A DNA stretch of 32,000 nt from NCBI GenBank assembly GCA_036749235.1, contig DAINYW010000002.1:34926-66925 (forward strand), read 5' to 3'. Below the pieces are notes generated by a model, which saw nothing but the letters and a program-made list of their open reading frames with translations, did no database searches and had not been told where the DNA came from. Below, one piece after another: positions 21,676 to 31,931 of the stretch. Source of the stretch: Nitrosopumilaceae archaeon (lineage in GTDB: Archaea; Thermoproteota; Nitrososphaeria; Nitrososphaerales; Nitrosopumilaceae). How positions within the stretch are numbered: the stretch's first letter is position 1; each line of letters starts with the position of its first letter. The position numbers and the translations under genes are program-made.

Positions 21676-22389
21676 ATGTTGCCTGAGAATATAGACAAAG
21701 ATTCAGATCTATCGGTGAAAGCAGAAGAGTACATCGAGGTAATAAGTACAGACGATGAGCGGATCAAGATCATAGGAGAGGAGCTTGCCAACGACACTGG
21801 AAGGGCAATCTTTGGAAAGATATCGCAGGGAGTTGCAAGCACCAATGACCTTGCAAAAGCACTAAACATTTCGCTTCCACTTGTAAATTGGCACATAAAT
21901 CGCCTTTTGAGTGTAGCTTTAATCAAGGTGGAAAAGGTTGAGATGAGCTCAAAAAATAAGAAGATGAAATATTACGGGCCAGTAAAGACCGCACTTGTGA
22001 TTGTTCCCCCTGAAAATTCCTCTGAAAATAATGTATCAAAGTCAAAAAAGGAAACTGTTCTGTTGCAGTTGCGACATTATTTGGCAAGTATCGCAGCATT
22101 TGTTGTAGGTACATCTACAATCTATATTACTGAGAAAAACCAATTGCCAACTGGATCTGTCACGGCACCGCAAACAGCAAAGAATCTTGCACAAACATCA
22201 GAGTCTTTGCATGCAGCTACACCACAGACCTCGATCACAACCGCATCTCCTCCGCCAGAACCTTCGATTCTTGCGGCAGAACCAACCTTGATTTTACTTG
22301 CATTACTAGGTGGTGCCATAGCATTCTGCGCGGTCTTTTTTGGAATTCGTATGGCTCGAAGAAAAAAACAGAAGGTTCAAACAATTTAA
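21676..22389 (+). CDS. membrane-tethered winged-helix (ArsR-like) protein
   Basis: N-terminal wHTH (RIKIIGEELANDTGRAIFGKISQGVASTNDLAKALNISLPLVNWHINRLLSVALI). TM segment at ~aa 135-152. S/T/P-rich linker. Second TM segment LILLALLGGAIAFCAVFFGI followed by RMARRKKQK. Confidence 0.7.
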   Translation: MLPENIDKDSDLSVKAEEYIEVISTDDERIKIIGEELANDTGRAIFGKISQGVASTNDLAKALNISLPLVNWHINRLLSVALIKVEKVEMSSKNKKMKYYGPVKTALVIVPPENSSENNVSKSKKETVLLQLRHYLASIAAFVVGTSTIYITEKNQLPTGSVTAPQTAKNLAQTSESLHAATPQTSITTASPPPEPSILAAEPTLILLALLGGAIAFCAVFFGIRMARRKKQKVQTI

Positions 22390-22521
22390 AATTCGAATTT
22401 TCTTGGAGATACCAAAAAAATAAAAAATATATCATGTAAGAAACACTTTTGCAATTTTTTAATAAAAAAATAGGTTAAAATGAAATTTAATCAAAACCTA
22501 TAAGCTCTGTTAATTATTCAA

Positions 22522-23313
22522 ATGCTAATGACAACCAAAAACAAAATCGTGCTTGCAACACTGGCTGCAATTCTTATTGTTTCAACAACAGTGTTTGCTG
22601 GCATGCAGACTTCACAAAAAGAGGCCTACGGGCAACAATCACCAGTTCTGTATCCATCGCGAGAGAGAACAATCTCTGTCACTGGTGCTGCCACGACATC
22701 AGTTTTACCAGATCTCGTGACAGTGCAATTTGGGGTTGACACCGAAGGCAAGACGGCTCAGGAAGCCATAAGCTCAAACGCGCAAATAATGAATGCGGTA
22801 GTTTCTTCTGTTCAAAACCTAGGTATCACCAAAGATGAAATCAGTACGACTGGGTTTACCATATATCCAATCTACAATGATACTGTACCTGATCTGAAAA
22901 CCGGAGTTCACAAGTCAGTACTCGCAGGATATAGGGCCTCCAATACGTTGTATGTCAAGACCACAAAGCTATCCTTGGCAGGAAATATCATTGACACTGC
23001 TGTTAGCTCGGGGGCAAACAGAGTGGACAATGTGTCATTTTCGCTTTCTTCTGTTCAACAGCAAAGCATACAAGATGACCTATTAGGCAAAGCCGTACTC
23101 AACGCTAAATCTCGTGCAGAAAAAGCACTAGATCCGCTAGGCCAGAAGATAATTGGTGTAAAAATGGTAAATCTCTCGGAATTCAACATGCCTCCTCCAA
23201 TATACTACAATGCGGGAGCAGCTCCGATGGCAGAAAAATCCACGCCAATATTTACATCAAATCAAGAAGTAACAACTACTGCAAACGTCATTTTCCTAAT
23301 TGGAGACAAGTAG
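22522..23313 (+). CDS. SIMPL-domain (DUF541-type) secreted protein
   Basis: Signal/anchor, then I.V.G.A...V.PD...V.FGV.TEGKTA.EA...NA..MN.V...... and the C-terminal duplicated half that is typical of SIMPL proteins. The start may be ATG 22528. Confidence 0.8.
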   Translation: MLMTTKNKIVLATLAAILIVSTTVFAGMQTSQKEAYGQQSPVLYPSRERTISVTGAATTSVLPDLVTVQFGVDTEGKTAQEAISSNAQIMNAVVSSVQNLGITKDEISTTGFTIYPIYNDTVPDLKTGVHKSVLAGYRASNTLYVKTTKLSLAGNIIDTAVSSGANRVDNVSFSLSSVQQQSIQDDLLGKAVLNAKSRAEKALDPLGQKIIGVKMVNLSEFNMPPPIYYNAGAAPMAEKSTPIFTSNQEVTTTANVIFLIGDK

Positions 23314-23453
23314 CTCCACTCCTATCTTTTTTATATCTAGAACCTCGGCTGCTTATTCGTGCAACTAAAAACTATTTGTAATTGTAAAATCAGATCTGTT
23401 GATTCCTAAATACTAAACATCTTTTAAGGACTATTGCATATCTCAGACAGAAT

Positions 23454-24404
23454 ATGGAAGTAATGGGAAGAGGTTTAAGGCAGATAATGCAGGAAACTCC
23501 TTGTTATTTCCATATATTTACCAAATTTGCCGCGTACAAATTATTTAATAAACGTAGTCCACTCTACGGTTCTGCTGATATAATCAACGTATGTAATCTG
23601 CACTGTGAGCATTGTTACTGGTGGCTTAATAGAAAAGAAAATGAAGAGCTTACTGTAGAACAGTGGCAAAAGGTAATTGATGAGAAATTCAAGAAAAACC
23701 ACGTTTTCATAATCACCCTCGTTGGAGGTGAACCTACTCTTAGACCAGATGTTATAGAATTATTTGTAAAGCAGTTCCCAAAACGAGTCTCCATAGTTTC
23801 CAATGGAACTCTGCCACTTAAACGGATTGAGAATCTATACTTTTATTGGATTTCAATAGACGGTACAAAGGAAATTCATGACAAGATTCGTGGAGATAAT
23901 GCATGGGAACGTACAAGAAAGAACGTGCTTGACTATGTCAATAATAATGGAGAAAAAGCCTGGAAAGACATCTGGATTACAATGACTATAAACTCACTAA
24001 ACCACAAGACTGTCAAGCAAGTTGCAGACGAATGGTATGATTACTCTAATAAAATAGGATTCCAGTTTCACACTCCATTTATGAAAAATGACCCCCTGTG
24101 GTTACCCTTTGGTGAGGAAAGAACAAAGCTTGTTGATGATATTATCGCAATGAAAGCGAGGTACGATGATGATTACGTCATAAATCCTATCTATCAGCTG
24201 GAATTAATGAAGAAAAACTGGGGAGGAAAAGGAACTACACCAATTGATTGTCCAACATGGGCTATCGTATCAGTAGATCACTTGGGACGAGAGAAGAGAC
24301 CTTGTTGTATAGGAAGTGCAGAAAAAGAATCCATGAAGCCAATTTGTGAAGAATGTGGTTTAGGTTGCTATTCTGTTCTAGTTGGCTACGGCGTGAAAGG
24401 ATAG
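23454..24404 (+). CDS. radical SAM protein with C-terminal Cys-rich region
   Basis: C-x3-C-x2-C cluster in NVCNLHCEHCYWW. GGEPTL SAM-binding motif. The C-terminal segment has 6 Cys (CPTW...PCCIGS...ICEECGLGC), suggesting an auxiliary Fe-S cluster. Confidence 0.85.
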   Translation: MEVMGRGLRQIMQETPCYFHIFTKFAAYKLFNKRSPLYGSADIINVCNLHCEHCYWWLNRKENEELTVEQWQKVIDEKFKKNHVFIITLVGGEPTLRPDVIELFVKQFPKRVSIVSNGTLPLKRIENLYFYWISIDGTKEIHDKIRGDNAWERTRKNVLDYVNNNGEKAWKDIWITMTINSLNHKTVKQVADEWYDYSNKIGFQFHTPFMKNDPLWLPFGEERTKLVDDIIAMKARYDDDYVINPIYQLELMKKNWGGKGTTPIDCPTWAIVSVDHLGREKRPCCIGSAEKESMKPICEECGLGCYSVLVGYGVKG

Positions 24405-24425: not shown

Positions 24426-25811
24426 TTACATCCTACGATCATTCCAATTTACAAAATTTATGCGAGTAAGAAGGATAACTAATACAAGGACGCTAAATAA
24501 AACATACAATGATGTAACGGGAAATTCTGGAGTCGAAGAGGGATTCATAACAAATGCTGAGAATTCCGAGTCTGCAAAGCTATTTCCGTTTAGATTCTCA
24601 AATCCAATAGTAACGGGCCCTGTGAAATTTGATGGAAAAGGAACACTAATTGTGTTCAGCGAACCATCGCTACTGGTTTTTCCAGACTTGTGGAAGATTA
24701 CATTGCTCTTGCCCTCTATTACTGAGAAATCATAGTCTATCGAGTTCACTGTTTTATTAAATAAATAAGGATCTAAAACTTGGAACTTGAAATTTGTTAT
24801 TGCGCCAGGAAAAATTTCCTGCGGATCCCAGCTGAGACTCACTTTATACTGTGCGTTTCTAGTAAATTGTTGAATTGGAAAACTAGTCTCGTTGCTTGAC
24901 GCAAGTGAGAAATCCATTTCTGGTTTGGATTCATGTTGTTGTTTTGCCATATATGATAATTCTTGTTTGTAGAGTATCAGATGAACTATTCTGTCATCTG
25001 ACGAATAATCATCTATAATGATGGCATTTTGAGGTAGTTTTATTCCGTTAACATAGGCATCATATTTTGTAACGATAAAATCACCAAATGATTTTGGTAT
25101 CTTGATCTCTTGGTGAACTACACTAGCTTGCTTCAAGTTGGTATTAGACCAATCAAATGGCATAACAAAACCCATAGATTTCTTGTCAGGGTCATAGCGG
25201 AAATTATTTATCTGATCATAATATGCAATTACAGTAACATTTTGCTTTCCATACTTATTGTCATATACTTGGTAATAGTTTGTGACAGGAATGGATATGG
25301 CGGCGCTGTATGACTTGCTGACTTGATTCTCATACGAACCCATCGTTAGTACCTGAATCTTGAATCTATACAAACCTCCTGAATTGAAAACTGGACCTGA
25401 CACATCATAATTTCCGCTATGTTGTCCAATTATTCCAGAAAGGAATCCGCCTTTTTCATTAATTGAGACATTTCCAGATTGTTGAGGTATCATATTTATG
25501 AGAAAATTACCGTTGTCACTTTTGAAAACATGCCCAAACAATGCCTTGTCAGCTCTGAAAGCCGAGATAGCTAGGGTGACTTGAGGAAATGGTTGCTGGC
25601 TGTCTATATCGATTAGCATAAAATTGATTTGTGTAACTACATGAGTGTTGTCAATTAAGAATGGCGAAGAATTAATTGAGAAGGTCACATTCCTGTTCCC
25701 AATCATGGCTGGAGGTAACGTCTCACTCGCTAATCCATCACCATAGGCTGCTGATAAAAATAGAAAATTTGAAACTAGAAAAAGGAAAAGGACTACTTTT
25801 AGCTTGAACAA
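24426..25811 (-). CDS. secreted two-domain beta-rich protein with PEF-CTERM-type tail
   Basis: Signal peptide ...FLFLSAAYG. C-terminal P-E-F (plus-strand 24522-24530), then TM segment SLYVLFSVLVLVILL, then a basic tail. TTG start at 25811 is supported by TATA spacing. Confidence 0.75.
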   Translation of the reverse strand: MFKLKVVLFLFLVSNFLFLSAAYGDGLASETLPPAMIGNRNVTFSINSSPFLIDNTHVVTQINFMLIDIDSQQPFPQVTLAISAFRADKALFGHVFKSDNGNFLINMIPQQSGNVSINEKGGFLSGIIGQHSGNYDVSGPVFNSGGLYRFKIQVLTMGSYENQVSKSYSAAISIPVTNYYQVYDNKYGKQNVTVIAYYDQINNFRYDPDKKSMGFVMPFDWSNTNLKQASVVHQEIKIPKSFGDFIVTKYDAYVNGIKLPQNAIIIDDYSSDDRIVHLILYKQELSYMAKQQHESKPEMDFSLASSNETSFPIQQFTRNAQYKVSLSWDPQEIFPGAITNFKFQVLDPYLFNKTVNSIDYDFSVIEGKSNVIFHKSGKTSSDGSLNTISVPFPSNFTGPVTIGFENLNGNSFADSEFSAFVMNPSSTPEFPVTSLYVLFSVLVLVILLTRINFVNWNDRRM

Positions 25812-25881: not shown

Positions 25882-26379
25882 TTATAAGCTTGAGAAAGTA
25901 TCAGCGAGGTTATACGCTGTTCTTTCAAGTAGTATTGGGTTATATTTTTGAATAATTTCTCTAACCACGTCGACATTCCTTAGGTTGAATGTTTTTTTAA
26001 AATAGGTATTTTTGGTCTCGATCACTTTATCCTCAATTAATTGGGAAAGATACGTAGAAACTGTAGATGGTGATTTACGCACTTTTTCAACCATATTTGA
26101 GAAAGAAAGATTTTGATCATTGAGTAACGCAAGCAATATTCTTTGTGGAGTTTCCTGTCTTAGATTTCTTATTAAAATTGATTCTTCCTTTGTGACAAAA
26201 AGAGGATAGAATCTAGTTCTGCCTGACTTTCTTTCTATTTTTACGGTTCCATCTTCTTCCAGTTTTTTTACATGATAGCTTAGAACGCCGTTTTTCATTC
26301 CGGTTTCTCTCATTATTTCACGAAATTTTATTCCAGGGTTTTTTTCAATCAGTCTAACGATTTCAGAGCTTCTGTTCAT
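25882..26379 (-). CDS. transcriptional regulator with two tandem winged-helix domains
   Basis: wHTH 1: IVRLIEKNPGIKFREIMRETGMKNGVLSYHVKKLEEDGTV. wHTH 2: RILLALLNDQNLSFSNMVEKVRKSPSTVSTYLSQLIEDKVI. An SD, AGGAGGG, lies 7 nt upstream of the ATG inside the end of the upstream gene. Confidence 0.8.
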   Translation of the reverse strand: MNRSSEIVRLIEKNPGIKFREIMRETGMKNGVLSYHVKKLEEDGTVKIERKSGRTRFYPLFVTKEESILIRNLRQETPQRILLALLNDQNLSFSNMVEKVRKSPSTVSTYLSQLIEDKVIETKNTYFKKTFNLRNVDVVREIIQKYNPILLERTAYNLADTFSSL

Positions 26380-26381
26380 GT

Positions 26382-26774
26382 TTAGTCCCTCCTAAAGACG
26401 CTAATTGCAAACATCCCAAGTGTACAAAGGGAGAGAAAATGTCCTATTTCTCCAGCAGAGAATACCCCAAGATAATATGTATATTGCCAAGCGGCGTCTA
26501 CTAGCGAAAGAGTTTCCGATGCTACAAATATGGAAAAAGCAAGCATCGTAAACAATAACCTTCTTGTCCTTACTCTTGCGTAGGCTATGACAGATACAAT
26601 ACTGAGAAAGGCAGCCAAACCAATTCCGCTAAGGTGAAGCAGTATATGGAAAACCTGGAACTTGTGAAATATGTGAGGTAATATTACAGGTATAGCTAAG
26701 ATTCCTATTACGGCAAAGATGGTTAGCGTGAATAGCTTCGACCTATTTTCCAATAGAGGGTTGGTTTTAAGCAC
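26382..26774 (-). CDS. 4-TM membrane protein with a His-rich first loop/helix
   Basis: Four hydrophobic segments. There are 4 His within 14 residues (LPHIFHKFQVFHILLHLSG) plus GEIGHF in TM4. GTG start. There are 2 nt between its stop and the regulator's ATG. Confidence 0.7.
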   Translation of the reverse strand: MLKTNPLLENRSKLFTLTIFAVIGILAIPVILPHIFHKFQVFHILLHLSGIGLAAFLSIVSVIAYARVRTRRLLFTMLAFSIFVASETLSLVDAAWQYTYYLGVFSAGEIGHFLSLCTLGMFAISVFRRD

Positions 26775-27002: not shown

Positions 27003-29975
27003 CTATTCAATATTCTTAATCTTAATTACTTGCTCTGAGCTTTTTCTAAGCTCTATTACACCTTTGCAGTAGAAAAAGGCCACAACAATTAGTAATCCTG
27101 TGATCGATGGGGCTACTACTTGAACATAACTAAAACCTAATCTAGGAATTCCTGCAACTATATTTGTTTGACTAGGAAAATTGTTTTGTGACGGACCTGC
27201 GGTTATTGTTATTGTTCCAAGCTTTTCTGCCCGCTCCTCGGCAATCACGATATTTCCTTGCGAATCAGGTGTTATCCATTGTACAGAGGAGTTTGATGAT
27301 GGAATATTTATCTCGATACTCTCTCCAGTCCTTGGATCAACTATTGCAATTTTATCAATAGTGTGCTGCGCAATCCAGAGATTGTGGTATTTGTCAAACG
27401 CCATTCCATAGGGTAGACCACTAGGATCAAGCGGTATTCTCTTGAATGTCTTAAGCAATGGATCAAAGACTGATACTGCATGACCCTCGTGTTCTGAGAC
27501 GTATATCTTTCCTGTCTGGGAATCTAAAATTATACCAGTGGGGTCCACAAGTGTATAGTTTTTCTCAGATGGTGAATACTCTGTTATCTTGTTGTTTGTT
27601 GGATCAAGACTAGCTATTTTTCCGATTCCTTCTGCAATCCATATTTTGCCTAAAGTGTTGCCTATCGCTATATCCTGAGGACTAGATTTGTTATCTAGCT
27701 TTATTGAATTAAATTCAGATGCCTTATGGTTGAATTTCAATATCTCGGCTGCGCCTGTGTCTATGTTTGTAGATGTCATCCAAATAGTATCGTTACTGTC
27801 AATGGCAATGCTTGTGAGAATTCCTTGACTTGGAATTGGATAATCTTGGTGTGAGTTATCATCTGGATTATAATGTCCAAGAATCTTTCTCTGATAATCG
27901 ATATACCAGAGAGTATCATGCGAATCTAAAGCCATGTATGTTATACTGTTTAATCCGTCAATCTTGTGTTCTGTGTATTTGTTTGATCCCAGATCAAACT
28001 CAAGTATCTTACCACTCTTGAATGTAATGTCACCAACCCATATCTTGTTTCTAGTATTATCATATACTGGATACTTTGGCGTACTGTTTGCAGGGGTTTT
28101 AAATTCAGAAATTTTTACAAGCAAGTCGTTTAGTTTTGGTCTGACAAGTAAGTCATACGATGCTACAAGATTGAGCGCATTTTCCTTGTCTTGTACTCCT
28201 TCGACTCTGACCGTCCAGTGTCCTGGAAGTCCAAAATCGGTATTTGCAACAAATGCCCCAGTAGATGTTTGGTTTGCATCTAGCGCGATTGATCCTATTT
28301 CTTGGTCGACCGGTGTAAGTCTCAACTTTACTGACTGCATATCAATTGGATTCTTGCTTGAATCCAAAAATGAAATTTTAAAATTATTACTCCCTGTAGA
28401 AAATGGGTTAATTGATAAGACTATTCTGCTTCCATTTTCGACAAACCTTGTCTCTGAAAAACCATTTCCTAGAGTGTTATCCGTAGAAGCAAGAGCAAAG
28501 ACACTTTGTCCATTTATTAGTTGTAATTGACTTTGAAACTCACTTGACGGTAATCCAGAATCGACAAGTACTGCTACGGAGGCAATCAAAGCTATTCCAA
28601 TCATTGCTTCGATTTGTGTGCTTTTACTAAATTGTGAGAAAATTCGCGTTAAATTAGCTGCGCCCGAGCTAATTGCATCATCCTGATTTGCGTTCAAGAT
28701 GACTGTGGCCTTGAATGCATGCTTGTGAATTACTGTCTGATTGTACGCACCTAGACACAACATGGCTGATGCAAGAGAAAGTTTTATGATAAGTACTTTG
28801 CCGTAGGTTGATGCAAGTGTTAATGCGATGTTGTTTTCAAGGACGAAAAGCAGAACTGGACCTGTTACTGCTATTGAGCCAAGTATAGTAATAACCAGTA
28901 TTGAGAACCGCGGAATAATAATTGAGATTGATGATATGTTGGCCGTGTCATTGACGGCTTGCTTCAGATTCGGTAGAATAATGAACGCAATATAGAAAAT
29001 CCCTCCGATCCAGAGAGAAGCAGCTATATTGTGGATGAAATCTAATGTTAAGGGAATCATCTGACCAGTAGCTGCACCGTGAGAGATCAAACTTGTTGTT
29101 GCCAGTATTGCAACACCTATGAAAAATAATGACATGACTAAACCTCTTGGAGCAAGTGATTTTGAGTTTCTTACTTTGTAATATGTTATTAAGGAGATTC
29201 CAAGTAGCACCGCGCATTCGATCATTCTTAGAATCCATATGTTTCCAAATTTGGTAGAAATGGCATCTAATATTCCAGCGTTGATTGAATGTGCCTGAAC
29301 TACAATCATTGCAAAACCTGAAGCCAAAAGAACGACAGAACCAATCACTGTCAATTTCATCATACCTATATCGATCTTGGTTCGAGTTTCTGCAATTGAA
29401 TTTCGTAACCAAGAAATTCTCGAGATGGGCTTCCATAACCATAGAGTTGCAAAAGTAGATCCAACTACCATGACTTGCCCGACAAGCGCAGGAAATCTTG
29501 CAAATGCTTCAGGTACAGAGATCTCCTGATAGATACTAGATGTCACATTGTTAGCTAGATTTGGTGGCACAGCTTGGCCCACGGCAAAGAAAAAGGGGTT
29601 TTCAGTTACATGACCGTCTATTTGATCTAGAACTTTGGCTGTCACAGTGTAAATTCCGTTTGACAACCCAGGCTGGAGAGAAATACTAACGGCCTTCTGA
29701 TCATCGGTTATGTAATGTAAATTCTGACCCTGAACTTCTTTTCCGTTAGTGTCCAAAACTCGTATCTGGCTATATTTGATATCAATGGGATCATTAAAGT
29801 AAACGTCGATTTTCGAAGGAGGTGTGTTCAAGGATTGTAGGGAAGCAGGAATGCTGTGGTCTATGTATGCATGTGCATAAGATTTTGGAAGGTTTGGAAT
29901 AACAATTAACGCGGAGGAAATTAAAAAGATAATTAGGACAACTTGAAATGTAGTTCTACGATCAAATCTTCTCAT
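27003..29975 (-). CDS. CopC-CopD fusion extended by a YtkA/FixH-like beta-sandwich, a beta-propeller and a C-terminal anchor
   Basis: Signal peptide ending SYA, then His35. CopC domain at aa 35-133 (HAYIDHSIPA...IDVYF...IRVLD.NGKEV...LDQIDGHVTENPFFFAV). About 8-10 TM CopD region at aa ~155-475. Beta-sandwich at aa ~512-612 (SINPFSTGSNNFKISFLDSSKNPIDMQSVKLRL...GLPGHWTVRVEG). Seven-blade-like propeller at aa ~622-925. TM anchor at aa ~948-972. Confidence 0.9.
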   Translation of the reverse strand: MRRFDRRTTFQVVLIIFLISSALIVIPNLPKSYAHAYIDHSIPASLQSLNTPPSKIDVYFNDPIDIKYSQIRVLDTNGKEVQGQNLHYITDDQKAVSISLQPGLSNGIYTVTAKVLDQIDGHVTENPFFFAVGQAVPPNLANNVTSSIYQEISVPEAFARFPALVGQVMVVGSTFATLWLWKPISRISWLRNSIAETRTKIDIGMMKLTVIGSVVLLASGFAMIVVQAHSINAGILDAISTKFGNIWILRMIECAVLLGISLITYYKVRNSKSLAPRGLVMSLFFIGVAILATTSLISHGAATGQMIPLTLDFIHNIAASLWIGGIFYIAFIILPNLKQAVNDTANISSISIIIPRFSILVITILGSIAVTGPVLLFVLENNIALTLASTYGKVLIIKLSLASAMLCLGAYNQTVIHKHAFKATVILNANQDDAISSGAANLTRIFSQFSKSTQIEAMIGIALIASVAVLVDSGLPSSEFQSQLQLINGQSVFALASTDNTLGNGFSETRFVENGSRIVLSINPFSTGSNNFKISFLDSSKNPIDMQSVKLRLTPVDQEIGSIALDANQTSTGAFVANTDFGLPGHWTVRVEGVQDKENALNLVASYDLLVRPKLNDLLVKISEFKTPANSTPKYPVYDNTRNKIWVGDITFKSGKILEFDLGSNKYTEHKIDGLNSITYMALDSHDTLWYIDYQRKILGHYNPDDNSHQDYPIPSQGILTSIAIDSNDTIWMTSTNIDTGAAEILKFNHKASEFNSIKLDNKSSPQDIAIGNTLGKIWIAEGIGKIASLDPTNNKITEYSPSEKNYTLVDPTGIILDSQTGKIYVSEHEGHAVSVFDPLLKTFKRIPLDPSGLPYGMAFDKYHNLWIAQHTIDKIAIVDPRTGESIEINIPSSNSSVQWITPDSQGNIVIAEERAEKLGTITITAGPSQNNFPSQTNIVAGIPRLGFSYVQVVAPSITGLLIVVAFFYCKGVIELRKSSEQVIKIKNIE

Positions 29976-30157: not shown

Positions 30158-31060
30158 GTGAATAATAGAGTACTTGTCCTAGTTATTGGTGGAATTATTT
30201 CCACTGGTTTAATTTACACGCCGCACGCATCAGCTCATAATTTTGGAGGAGATGAGAGTGCATCATTTCTTGCCAAAGTGGCAGAAATAAAAACAGAAGT
30301 GAATTTCATTTCAAAACATGTTTCAGAGCCGGATGCAATTGATTACTACGCTGATGCCCTCAACGAGTATTGGAATGCTAATGATACGAGAGAAATGGGA
30401 GAGAGAAATACGCTATTACAAAAAGAGATTCCAGCCACGATTAATGCTACTATAGGCGATGCAAGATCTGGAAACCAAGCTGCCGTTAATGCTGATGTCT
30501 CGCAGCTAAACGGATATCTTGACGAAGCTGTTCCAGTTAGAATAGACAAAGACAAGCTTTCAAATTCCACCGTCCAAGCACTAGCAGTAACTTTTGTCTT
30601 AAAAGAAGCTTTAGAGAAGTATGGCGATGCAATCAACTCTACAGTGGATCTCAATGATATGTCGCAGATGAACATAAACGGTAGCGTGTCTAGCGGTTCT
30701 ACGGGTTCGACGCAACAAATGGCTGTCACCATTGTTGACCAACACAAATATTATAATTCGATAGGTCTTGCAACAGCAGCTCAGCAAATGTTCAATGACT
30801 TGGCTGCAAAGAACCCCGACAAGTCTACTTTTAACGCCAAGATATCGGCTGGACTTGCAAAGATGATACAGGACCTCAATAACAAAGCCGACGCAAATAC
30901 GATAATGACAGATGCGCACGTTGACCTCCACCGCGCCATAGTTAGTGGCTACAATATTCAAGAGGTACCAGAGTTTCCAATGCCGGCATTATTAGTGATA
31001 ATCTCAATAGTGGGAGTGATAGCGATATCAAGATTTAGGTCAGTCAAGTTAAGACAATAA
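30158..31060 (+). CDS. secreted all-helical protein with predicted N-terminal His and PEF-CTERM-type tail
   Basis: Signal peptide ending HASA, then His27 (30236-30238). About 240 aa of helical A/N/D/K-rich sequence. C-terminal P-E-F (30968-30976), then TM segment ALLVIISIVGVIAI, then SRFRSVKLRQ. Confidence 0.75.
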   Translation: MNNRVLVLVIGGIISTGLIYTPHASAHNFGGDESASFLAKVAEIKTEVNFISKHVSEPDAIDYYADALNEYWNANDTREMGERNTLLQKEIPATINATIGDARSGNQAAVNADVSQLNGYLDEAVPVRIDKDKLSNSTVQALAVTFVLKEALEKYGDAINSTVDLNDMSQMNINGSVSSGSTGSTQQMAVTIVDQHKYYNSIGLATAAQQMFNDLAAKNPDKSTFNAKISAGLAKMIQDLNNKADANTIMTDAHVDLHRAIVSGYNIQEVPEFPMPALLVIISIVGVIAISRFRSVKLRQ

Positions 31061-31086: not shown

Positions 31087-31791
31087 ATGAAAACAAGAAT
31101 TGTAGCTCTTGCATCCGTTTCTATTTTCATTCTGCTAATAATTTCCATTTCCCCATTTGCCATTAAATCAGCTTTGGCCCACATAACTAAAGTGTATGGT
31201 AATTACCTCCTGACCGTCGGGTGGGCAAATGAACCGGTGTATAATGGGTTAATTAATGCACCATTAGTTATAGTAAAAAAAGGTAGTGGAGACACTGCCA
31301 AGCCAGTAATTAACGGGCTAGCTAATATGCAAATCTCAATAAAATATGGCTCGGTAACAAAAAAATTGGATTTTGTTCCAGATAGTACGGTCGATGGACA
31401 ATATGTTTCTCCACTAGTTCCTACAAGAGTCGGCTCTTACAGTCTGATAATGAAGGGCACTATAGAAAATCAGAGTATTGACACCGAAATAGCGCTTGAC
31501 GATGTTGCAAGCATAGATATTTTGAATTTTCCTCCGAATACGTCTAGCGATACTTCGGCAAATTTGGGACAAGTTGGAACAATTCTTGACCAATTAACAA
31601 ATGACATTGAAGAAGCAAAAAAGAATTCTGATGCTGCATCTCAGGATCTCTTAAATGCTGCCAAATCGTTCCAAGATGTAAAGGATAGCACCGACAGGTT
31701 ATACCTAATAAGTATGACAGGAATTGGTGTTGGAATCGCTGGAGTAGTAATAGCGGTAATCGCGATTACGCGCAACAAACAACAAGTCTAA
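31087..31791 (+). CDS. secreted beta-sandwich protein with predicted N-terminal His, helical stalk and TM anchor
   Basis: Signal peptide ending SALA, then His32 (cac at 31180-31182). About 110-aa beta-rich domain (HITKVYGNYLLTVGWANEPVYNGLINAPLVIV...). Helical segment, then C-terminal TM segment GIGVGIAGVVIAVIAI followed by TRNKQQV. Confidence 0.7.
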   Translation: MKTRIVALASVSIFILLIISISPFAIKSALAHITKVYGNYLLTVGWANEPVYNGLINAPLVIVKKGSGDTAKPVINGLANMQISIKYGSVTKKLDFVPDSTVDGQYVSPLVPTRVGSYSLIMKGTIENQSIDTEIALDDVASIDILNFPPNTSSDTSANLGQVGTILDQLTNDIEEAKKNSDAASQDLLNAAKSFQDVKDSTDRLYLISMTGIGVGIAGVVIAVIAITRNKQQV

Positions 31792-31931
31792 TTTTATAGA
31801 CACTAGTACAAATGTGAAATCTACTATCATGCGGGATTAATTCTTCGCATCATTATCTCTGTATCAAATAACATCTGTGACTAGGTTTCATGACAATTAG
31901 TCTCTTTAACTTCGCATAAAGTACACAAGAT

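Follow-up and report, generated by a model that had tools for sequence, protein, structure and literature searches.

A CopC-CopD fusion with a beta-propeller arm, the probable copper importer of a Nitrosotalea-related ammonia-oxidising archaeon

Described CopC/CopD systems and the archaeal locus

The energy metabolism of ammonia-oxidising archaea (AOA) is driven by copper enzymes, and nitrification in soils, in oceans and during water treatment is limited by the availability of copper; the route by which these organisms take up the metal is known only as "CopC/D". The gene described here belongs to this group and encodes a protein of 990 amino acid (aa) residues on the minus strand of a 32,000-nucleotide (nt) stretch of contig DAINYW010000002.1 (Nitrosopumilaceae archaeon, GenBank assembly GCA_036749235.1, positions 34,926 to 66,925 of the forward strand), hereafter called the window. 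Among the closest described systems, Bacillus subtilis YcnJ has the architecture CopC-CopD-YtkA and requires H24 of its CopC domain and H295 of its CopD domain, and Escherichia coli YebZ imports copper with the help of H135 and H154, a pair present in 99% of the CopD proteins with eight transmembrane (TM) helices. YebZ and its Cu(II)-binding CopC partner YobA resemble the archaeal protein in the eight-TM CopD domain and in its two outer-face histidines, essential for uptake in E. coli, but they are separate polypeptides and lack a YtkA domain, a propeller or an extra TM helix. Precedents for a CopD fused to C-terminal soluble copper-handling domains are found in proteobacterial CopCD proteins with C-terminal YtkA/DUF1775 and in the CopD of M. 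trichosporium with cytochrome c and Sco1-like domains; unlike the archaeal protein, none of these has been described with a propeller or a re-anchoring TM helix.

The archaeal protein shares with YcnJ the order of its parts, namely a predicted signal peptide exposing the first histidine of a CopC domain, an eight-TM CopD domain and an extracellular YtkA-type beta-sandwich, and both histidines required in YcnJ, one in CopC and one in CopD, are conserved in the archaeal family. Modules one to four thus correspond to the known YcnJ architecture, the YtkA assignment being borderline here and the archaeal match, unlike that of YcnJ, below threshold. YcnJ ends after YtkA, whereas the archaeal protein adds a seven-bladed beta-propeller of ~310 aa and a ninth TM helix. 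The comparison with YcnJ proposed in the initial annotation therefore holds, but its count of ~450 extra residues was too high, since YcnJ already possesses YtkA and only the propeller and the anchor, about 380 residues, go beyond it. The genetic surroundings are also similar in that each gene adjoins a regulator and a membrane-anchored protein with an N-terminal histidine, as in the ycnK-J-I operon; in contrast to ycnKJI, the archaeal neighbours with histidine as first mature residue are not DUF1775/YcnI proteins by sequence, and a winged helix-turn-helix (wHTH) protein together with a His-rich membrane protein takes the place of YcnK.

Within AOA, the nearest described counterparts are CopC/D_a and CopC/D_b of Nitrososphaera viennensis (NVIE_014300 and NVIE_014310), encoded in a cluster with the ArsR regulator NVIE_014280, the hypothetical membrane protein NVIE_014290 and the exported protein NVIE_1457. 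This cluster is up 2.2-2.8 log2-fold under copper limitation (2.47 for NVIE_014280), and induction of the region has likewise been seen in biofilms and on filters exposed to air. The gene order in the window is that of N. viennensis (wHTH regulator, 130-aa membrane protein, CopCD), with NVIE_014290 at the same position as the 130-aa four-TM gene and an exported protein present in both; the family name is likewise the same, and Nitrososphaera homologues of 1000-1090 aa contain the same five modules. On the other hand, identity to Nitrososphaeraceae members is 36-50%, and the promoter motif of N. viennensis is missing here.

The legend of supplementary Fig. S5 of Reyes et al. (2020) indicates that CopC, CopD, YtkA, FixH and SGL domains were drawn on AOA CopD proteins, and the literature covers these proteins as "CopC/D fusions", the propeller not being discussed in the text. 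The initial annotation, which knew of no described member with such an extension, was thus right as regards discussion of the propeller in the text and wrong as regards the architecture, which is already drawn and database-annotated and hence is not first discovered in this analysis. Uncharacterised are the functional unit formed by propeller and anchor, the distinct residues that it conserves, and the module of genes inherited with it.

Copper-site residues and reality of the fusion

The product of the gene is probably the principal membrane protein for copper acquisition in an AOA related to Nitrosotalea, a YcnJ-type importer equipped with a propeller arm. The copper-acquisition reading of the initial annotation finds support in the conservation of the copper-site residues, at 96-97%, and in the induction of the likely N. 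viennensis cluster by copper limitation. Conservation was determined in 100 diverse homologues, whose ectodomain identity spans 19-76%. Among PDB sequences the CopC domain is matched best by 9C14, the corresponding domain of B. subtilis YcnJ in crystallised form; His35 aligns to residue 1 of both 9C14 and Mst-CopC (5ICU), and D120-G121-H122 to their DGH motif, in agreement with the earlier prediction of a signal peptide that exposes His35 and of a CopC domain with a D-G-H motif. All three putative ligands are near-invariant (H35 97%, D120 96%, H122 96%). The domain has the class features of CopC proteins with a single predicted Cu(II) site (C0-1), that is, a first mature His and a D-x-H motif, and no Met-rich Cu(I) site was found in it, residues 27-200 containing one Met. 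In the CopD domain, H299 and H315, located in the outer TM4-TM5 loop, are the only conserved histidines (96% each); their equivalence to the YebZ residues is based on their position in the NF033808 alignment and on the published description of YebZ, not on a residue-level alignment. H35/D120/H122 and H299/H315 correspond to residues experimentally required in YcnJ and YebZ.

The whole protein is encoded by one open reading frame (ORF) with an ATG start, whose five modules, as initially annotated, were recovered by Pfam and AlphaFold analyses, with only the sandwich match below threshold (Table 1). Hydropathy analysis placed the hydrophobic core of the signal peptide at residues 8-26, with predicted cleavage after S-Y-A leaving His35 N-terminal. 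Pfam matches above cutoff were CopC (PF04234; residues 35-132, 47.1 bits, cutoff 23.3), CopD (PF05425; residues 354-470, 46.8 bits, cutoff 32.1) and, on the propeller, Vgb_lyase (PF24684; residues 761-943, 61.2 bits, cutoff 50), SGL (31.0, cutoff 26.3), whose match overlaps that of Vgb_lyase, and NHL (23.6, cutoff 20). The sandwich yielded sub-threshold matches to YtkA (residues 522-591, 20.6 bits, cutoff 25.9) and FixH (16.2 bits, cutoff 23). Hydropathy combined with the K/R distribution predicted a signal helix, eight CopD helices, 474 outside residues (476-949), a ninth TM helix at 950-968 and a K/R-rich inside tail. The layout of the full-length AlphaFold model (predicted local distance difference test, pLDDT, 83.4) agrees with this topology: the CopC sandwich occupies residues 38-132 and the CopD helices 154-472; after a linker that is disordered at 482-503 come a beta-sandwich (506-612) and 28 strands arranged as seven blades (618-926), and then a second disordered stretch (929-947) and a TM helix (950-989). 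A separate model of the ectodomain reached a pLDDT of 87.8 and a predicted template modelling score (pTM) of 0.80. The seven blades, the outside location of the propeller and the final TM anchor, all foreseen in the initial annotation, are therefore borne out by hydropathy, by the K/R pattern and by both models.

The fused form is the rule in this family. More than 110 full-length homologues of about 960-1010 aa share the same Pfam set at 50-68% identity, and a scan of species-representative genomes returned 150 relatives, the best 80 of which nearly all cover query residues ~1-988. At least 80 species-representative genomes carry the family, and Nitrosotalea, Nitrosopumilaceae, Nitrososphaera, Nitrosocosmicus and Nitrosopolaris are represented among the best 80 of the 150. 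An exhaustive HMMER search added more distant members of 896-949 aa, Nitrosopumilus sp. among their sources, which show 27-32% ectodomain identity and retain CopC, CopD and the Vgb-type propeller. Among loci in which the gene is not interrupted by a contig end, a single ORF of at least 850 aa was present in 72 of 75, and the exceptions are frameshifts. Both ways in which the fusion might have dissolved, as an assembly artefact or through consistently split orthologues, were thus examined without overturning it, and an artefactual origin was rejected.

One of these exceptions, locus L085 (JGI Ga0209235_1000009), is 99.8-99.9% identical to the window and lacks 139 nt of it (window 28782-28920, junction 5982/5983). 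The missing segment encodes residues 352-398, the most conserved part of CopD, and its loss shifts the frame, giving separate calls of 361 and 586 aa; the deletion reflects an assembly error or else a loss-of-function variant occurring naturally in the population. Downstream of the deletion, this independent assembly reads the CopD-to-propeller junction in one frame. In two loci from a single ENA long-read assembly project (L002:6802-10667 and L089:5001-7833) the gene was called as two pieces overlapping by 19 and 44 nt, respectively, and in L089 tblastn located a frame change at the junction; both splits are most likely indel errors of long-read assemblies. Split calls of this kind inflate the database tally of "split" or "propeller-only" proteins.

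Some members carry labels from outside the AOA. The only bacterial label, Candidatus Binatus, is attached to a 1.7-kb contig with 44% identity; together with proteins labelled Pacearchaeota and Bathyarchaeia (P0169, P0072 and P0235 for the three labels), all on short contigs and 44-73% identical to AOA proteins, it was set aside, these labels probably reflecting mis-binned AOA fragments. Two further loci, L086 and L087 (guanine-plus-cytosine content, GC, 62 and 50%), encode distant members with 27-28% ectodomain identity and Vgb_lyase scores of 233-252 bits. They possess the same four-gene module, cupredoxin genes lie near the L087 copy, and their hosts are possibly organisms other than ammonia oxidisers.

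The extracellular arm and its possible roles

Members of the family occur throughout the sampled AOA genera, and about 40% of the protein mass consists of an unexamined arm that is conserved as strongly as the transporter core: conservation scores were 0.55 for the propeller, 0.53 for CopD, 0.53 for the ninth TM helix and 0.33 for the linkers. Within the ninth TM helix, Y950 (85%), P956 (92%) and small-residue motifs are retained. The sandwich within the arm has the size and the position, following CopD, of a YtkA domain in the models; a minority of homologues have a precomputed YtkA (PF13115) match, and in distant members the score is 23-25 bits. In the 100 homologues the sandwich showed no conserved His, Met or Cys, with position M546 varying between I, M, L and V and H586 kept in 25%.

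The best structural match of the propeller is Staphylococcus aureus Vgb, entries 2QC5, 2Z2N and 2Z2P heading the Foldseek results (target-normalised template modelling score 0.88-0.90, root-mean-square deviation 2.4 A, 18% identity). Both are seven-bladed and built on the common repeat P-x-G-I...D...W-F-T-E, but Vgb is a soluble cytoplasmic resistance enzyme, whereas the archaeal propeller is predicted to be extracellular and membrane-tethered. For comparison of residues, the Vgb sequence was checked against 2Z2N and then aligned to the family profile (hhalign probability 98.8), and a blade-by-blade register showed that P-H228 and P-H270 of Vgb begin the innermost strands of blades 6 and 7. 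Besides H270, residues His228, Glu268 and Glu284 of Vgb are reportedly involved in Mg2+ binding and catalysis. The catalytic role of H270 is given by the title of PDB entry 2Z2P ("inactive H270A"). In the archaeal family the positions of the catalytic His are taken by F/Y856 and Q899, and only a generic Glu (E913) is retained. The inner ring of the propeller as a whole consists of L/K634, T679, S/T721, L/Q767, T813, F/Y856 and Q899, and the register comparison found in it no counterpart of the E/N/N/D set (E32/N123/N168/D215) that holds Ca2+ at the first-strand N-termini of propeller lactonases and CJ1041C. Since the catalytic His and the Ca2+-ring positions are replaced, both a Vgb-type lyase and a canonical SGL/SMP-30-type lactonase were rejected as functions of the propeller. 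The NCBIfam Vgb(A) model scored 39 against a cutoff of 600, and a PDB sequence search with the propeller returned only out-of-register repeat matches (Pizza, PknD, Vgb) that are uninformative for residues.

The family conserves an acidic ring at the second-strand ends (D649 91%, D693 93%, E782 79%, E828 85%, Q/E870 and E913 85%), directly followed in the adjacent blades 5 and 6 by H829 (95%) and H871 (96%); Q899 is kept in 95%. The His pair is family-specific and goes beyond the generic Vgb-family ring, and no Cys or conserved Met suited to Cu(I) was found in the propeller. A stand-alone propeller paralogue also exists: protein P0198 (342 aa, L088:1236-2264; a cluster of 24 member sequences) consists of a propeller behind an N-terminal TM anchor, with CopC, CopD and the sandwich all absent. 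It shares 42% identity with residues 622-925 and retains the E-H, (E/Q)-H and Q motifs, and its gene does not adjoin a CopD gene.

By analogy with the bacterial systems, a sequence of events can be proposed for the whole protein. Cleavage of the signal peptide would make His35 N-terminal, and this residue, as a brace with D120 and H122, would form an outside mono-Cu(II) site in CopC, of which the motif is present and the copper binding is suggested by relatives. Copper captured there would be handed to H299/H315 of CopD and moved into the cytoplasm, as mutagenesis of YebZ and YcnJ suggests. After TM8 the chain would re-emerge as a second extracellular arm made of linker, sandwich and propeller, in which the sandwich is probably a spacer or adaptor, because it has no conserved metal ligands. 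The ninth TM helix would tie the arm to the membrane and probably packs against CopD, so that tethers at TM8 and TM9 would hold the arm over the transporter. Judging from its anatomy, the propeller face carrying the acidic ring, H829/H871 and Q899 may bind a divalent cation, Cu(II) being the most probable, or dock a partner, and it may pre-concentrate copper or relay it to CopC/CopD. The two exported, anchored proteins with N-terminal His encoded nearby would cooperate with the 990-aa protein in a YcnI-like role, and the small His/Glu-rich membrane protein and the wHTH regulator probably control expression in response to copper.

The candidate roles of the arm rank as copper capture or relay first, followed by a metalation platform, a ligand-degrading enzyme and a purely structural element. 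A more far-reaching version of the first is put forward tentatively: the arm may be a hitherto unrecognised extracellular copper-handling module with a new Cu(II) site at H829/H871 and the acidic ring, and, together with two new anchored N-terminal-His (histidine-brace-like) families, the His/Glu-rich membrane sensor and the wHTH regulator, it may constitute a dedicated archaeal high-affinity copper-acquisition system.

A less likely role for the arm is that of a metallochaperone or assembly platform, which would receive copper and on which extracytoplasmic cuproproteins such as ammonia monooxygenase (AMO), cupredoxins, multicopper oxidases and complex IV would dock for metalation, rather than one of capture for import. 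In B. subtilis, Qox function that depends on import does not require the YtkA domain of YcnJ, while in CuA assembly this domain is partly redundant with CtaK; such findings would fit a platform role, as would the frequent use of propellers as protein-docking hubs, the wealth of extracellular copper proteins in AOA and the cupredoxin genes adjoining the distant member in L087. Against it, the sandwich is devoid of conserved His, Met or Cys, no client protein was identified, and the conserved partners are not cupredoxins.

That the propeller is an active, lactonase-like metal-dependent hydrolase or lyase, freeing copper for CopC by degrading organic copper ligands or chalkophore-like chelates, appears improbable. 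Its Pfam membership (Vgb_lyase, SGL), its Vgb fold, the conserved His/Glu/Asp residues near the channel face and an enzyme-core-like degree of conservation speak for catalysis, but the substitutions at the Vgb His positions and in the lactonase Ca2+ ring speak against it, and no candidate substrate pathway was seen among the nearby genes. The suggestion of the initial annotation that the propeller binds a chalkophore or acts as a reductase- or enzyme-like module accordingly gained no positive evidence, the absence of Cys and of conserved Met adding to the replaced residues. Most improbable is an arm without copper chemistry, acting as a spacer or strut in the pseudo-periplasm, an S-layer attachment or an adhesive/structural propeller, as the double tether, the two disordered linkers, the occurrence of propellers in archaeal surface proteins and the generic nature of the acidic ring could suggest, because H829, H871 and Q899 are near-invariant over the whole identity range and are kept in the paralogue P0198.

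Several points weigh against the preferred reading of a copper importer with a copper-handling arm. Copper binding and transport by the 990-aa protein are proposed from its relatives, and CopCD systems have historically been linked to resistance too. At the level of family models, the NCBIfam CopD profile (NF033808), aligned to residues 159-470, scored 74.1 bits against an equivalog cutoff of 195 and the CopC equivalog 43.3 against 95, so that both fell below threshold, and the arrangement of the domains relative to each other is uncertain in the full-length model (pTM 0.57). The acidic ring is generic to Vgb-family repeats and may be structural, and a convergence of H829, H871, E828, E913 and Q899 into one site is suggested by the blade register. 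As regards the copper-limitation response, the putative orthology to NVIE_014300/014310 is deduced from gene order, family and the Nitrososphaera homologues; of the 608 family members found in a search with a Nitrososphaera orthologue, the best 120 included no protein under the name N. viennensis. Finally, the N. viennensis copper-limitation promoter motif TTCSGSMTTTGWACYANT is absent upstream of the gene; its one match in the window (31802-31819, 2 mismatches) is at chance level (78 of 100 shuffles).

As a core function copper acquisition is ordinary and unsurprising. A dedicated high-affinity acquisition system would, if real, explain how AOA supply themselves with copper at very low free Cu2+, and the propeller could reveal a new propeller-based metal site. 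Once the roles of the propeller and of the co-inherited N-terminal-His proteins are defined, a vague annotation would become a testable model of archaeal copper acquisition.

Co-inherited partners and neighbouring genes

The features of the gene and of its linked partners are listed in Table 1. Of the by-products of this analysis the partners, in particular the two exported proteins with N-terminal His, are the most interesting.

Table 1. Coordinates of the 990-aa gene, its modules and its linked partner genes in the window
Feature	Position	Strand	Basis
Whole gene, CopC-CopD-(YtkA-like)-propeller-anchor, 990 aa	27003..29975	-	ORF, Pfam/NCBIfam, full-length model, homologues
Predicted signal peptide, residues 1-34	29874..29975	-	Hydropathy; model helix 6-28; His35 aligned to 9C14/5ICU residue 1
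CopC domain, residues 35-132; Cu(II) site motif H35, D120, H122	29580..29873	-	PF04234, crystal-sequence alignment, conservation
CopD membrane domain, residues 154-475, eight TM helices; H299/H315	28551..29516	-	PF05425, NF033808, model, K/R-inside pattern
Flexible extracellular linker, residues 476-504	28464..28550	-	pLDDT <50 at 482-503; low conservation, 21% gaps
YtkA/FixH-like beta-sandwich (sub-threshold), residues 505-612	28140..28463	-	YtkA 20.6 bits, FixH 16.2; strands 506-612 in models
Seven-bladed Vgb-type beta-propeller, residues 618-926	27198..28124	-	28 strands, Foldseek, PF24684, hhalign, register
Disordered linker, residues 927-949	27129..27197	-	pLDDT <50 at 929-947; 16% gaps
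Ninth TM helix (C-terminal anchor), residues 950-968	27072..27128	-	Hydropathy 2.03; model helix 950-989; conservation
Cytoplasmic tail, residues 969-990 (5 K/R), plus stop codon	27003..27071	-	Positive-inside rule
Partner n234, 234 aa, exported, beta-domain, helical stalk, C-terminal TM anchor	31087..31791	+	Adjacency, conservation
Partner n300, 300 aa, exported, C-terminally anchored, largely helical	30158..31060	+	Linkage, conservation
130-aa four-TM protein, invariant H34, H43, H47, E87, E109, H112	26382..26774	-	Linkage, conservation
165-aa winged-helix regulator, ArsR / HTH_HVO_0163_N type	25882..26379	-	HTH_24 68.7 bits, HTH_5 52.9, HTH_HVO_0163_N 50.2

In 71 of 84 loci a homologue of partner n234 adjoins the gene, as a rule directly upstream and in divergent orientation, and the pairing persists in the very distant loci L086 and L087, of 62 and 50% GC (homologues at L001:6207-6923, L083:3750-4505, L086:7320-7970 and L087:6025-6762). 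The invariant residues of n234 are H32, the first mature residue, E49-P50, N57 and Y118, and a Ser/Gly linker precedes the stalk. No Pfam family was matched by n234 itself, and one of 35 members weakly matches YtkA in Pfam scans. Membership in YcnI/DUF1775 was considered and rejected, as comparison of the family profile with the PDB and per-member Pfam scans gave only coiled-coil noise. Its N-terminal His, its Glu and its C-terminal anchor are nevertheless analogous to features of YcnI, and n234 is a candidate for a new copper protein with a histidine brace, resembling YcnI in role and not in sequence. The second exported partner, n300, is linked in 51 loci of the same set; it likewise has no Pfam family match, and it keeps an invariant H27 after an A-x-A cleavage site as well as F29, E47, N136, T138, Y155 and Y198.

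The remaining two members lie on the other side of the gene. The 130-aa four-TM protein, a candidate membrane metal sensor or channel with a weak match to DUF7471, is linked in 46/84 loci, and the wHTH regulator, whose gene start overlaps the stop of the 130-aa gene, in 50/84; together they possibly form a membrane copper sensor plus regulator. Neither DUF1775 nor YcnK was matched by any neighbour in the window.

Further out, positions 24426-25811 (minus strand), downstream of the regulator, encode a secreted protein of 461 aa that ends in a TM anchor and matches no Pfam family, an arrangement found in 44/84 loci. Radical SAM, SIMPL (DUF541) and HTH genes follow at 21676-24404 and are syntenic with the module only in Nitrosotalea-level relatives (the equivalents in L001 and L003). 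In N. devanaterra, as in a 790-kb contig, NicO and proteasome genes lie on the other side.

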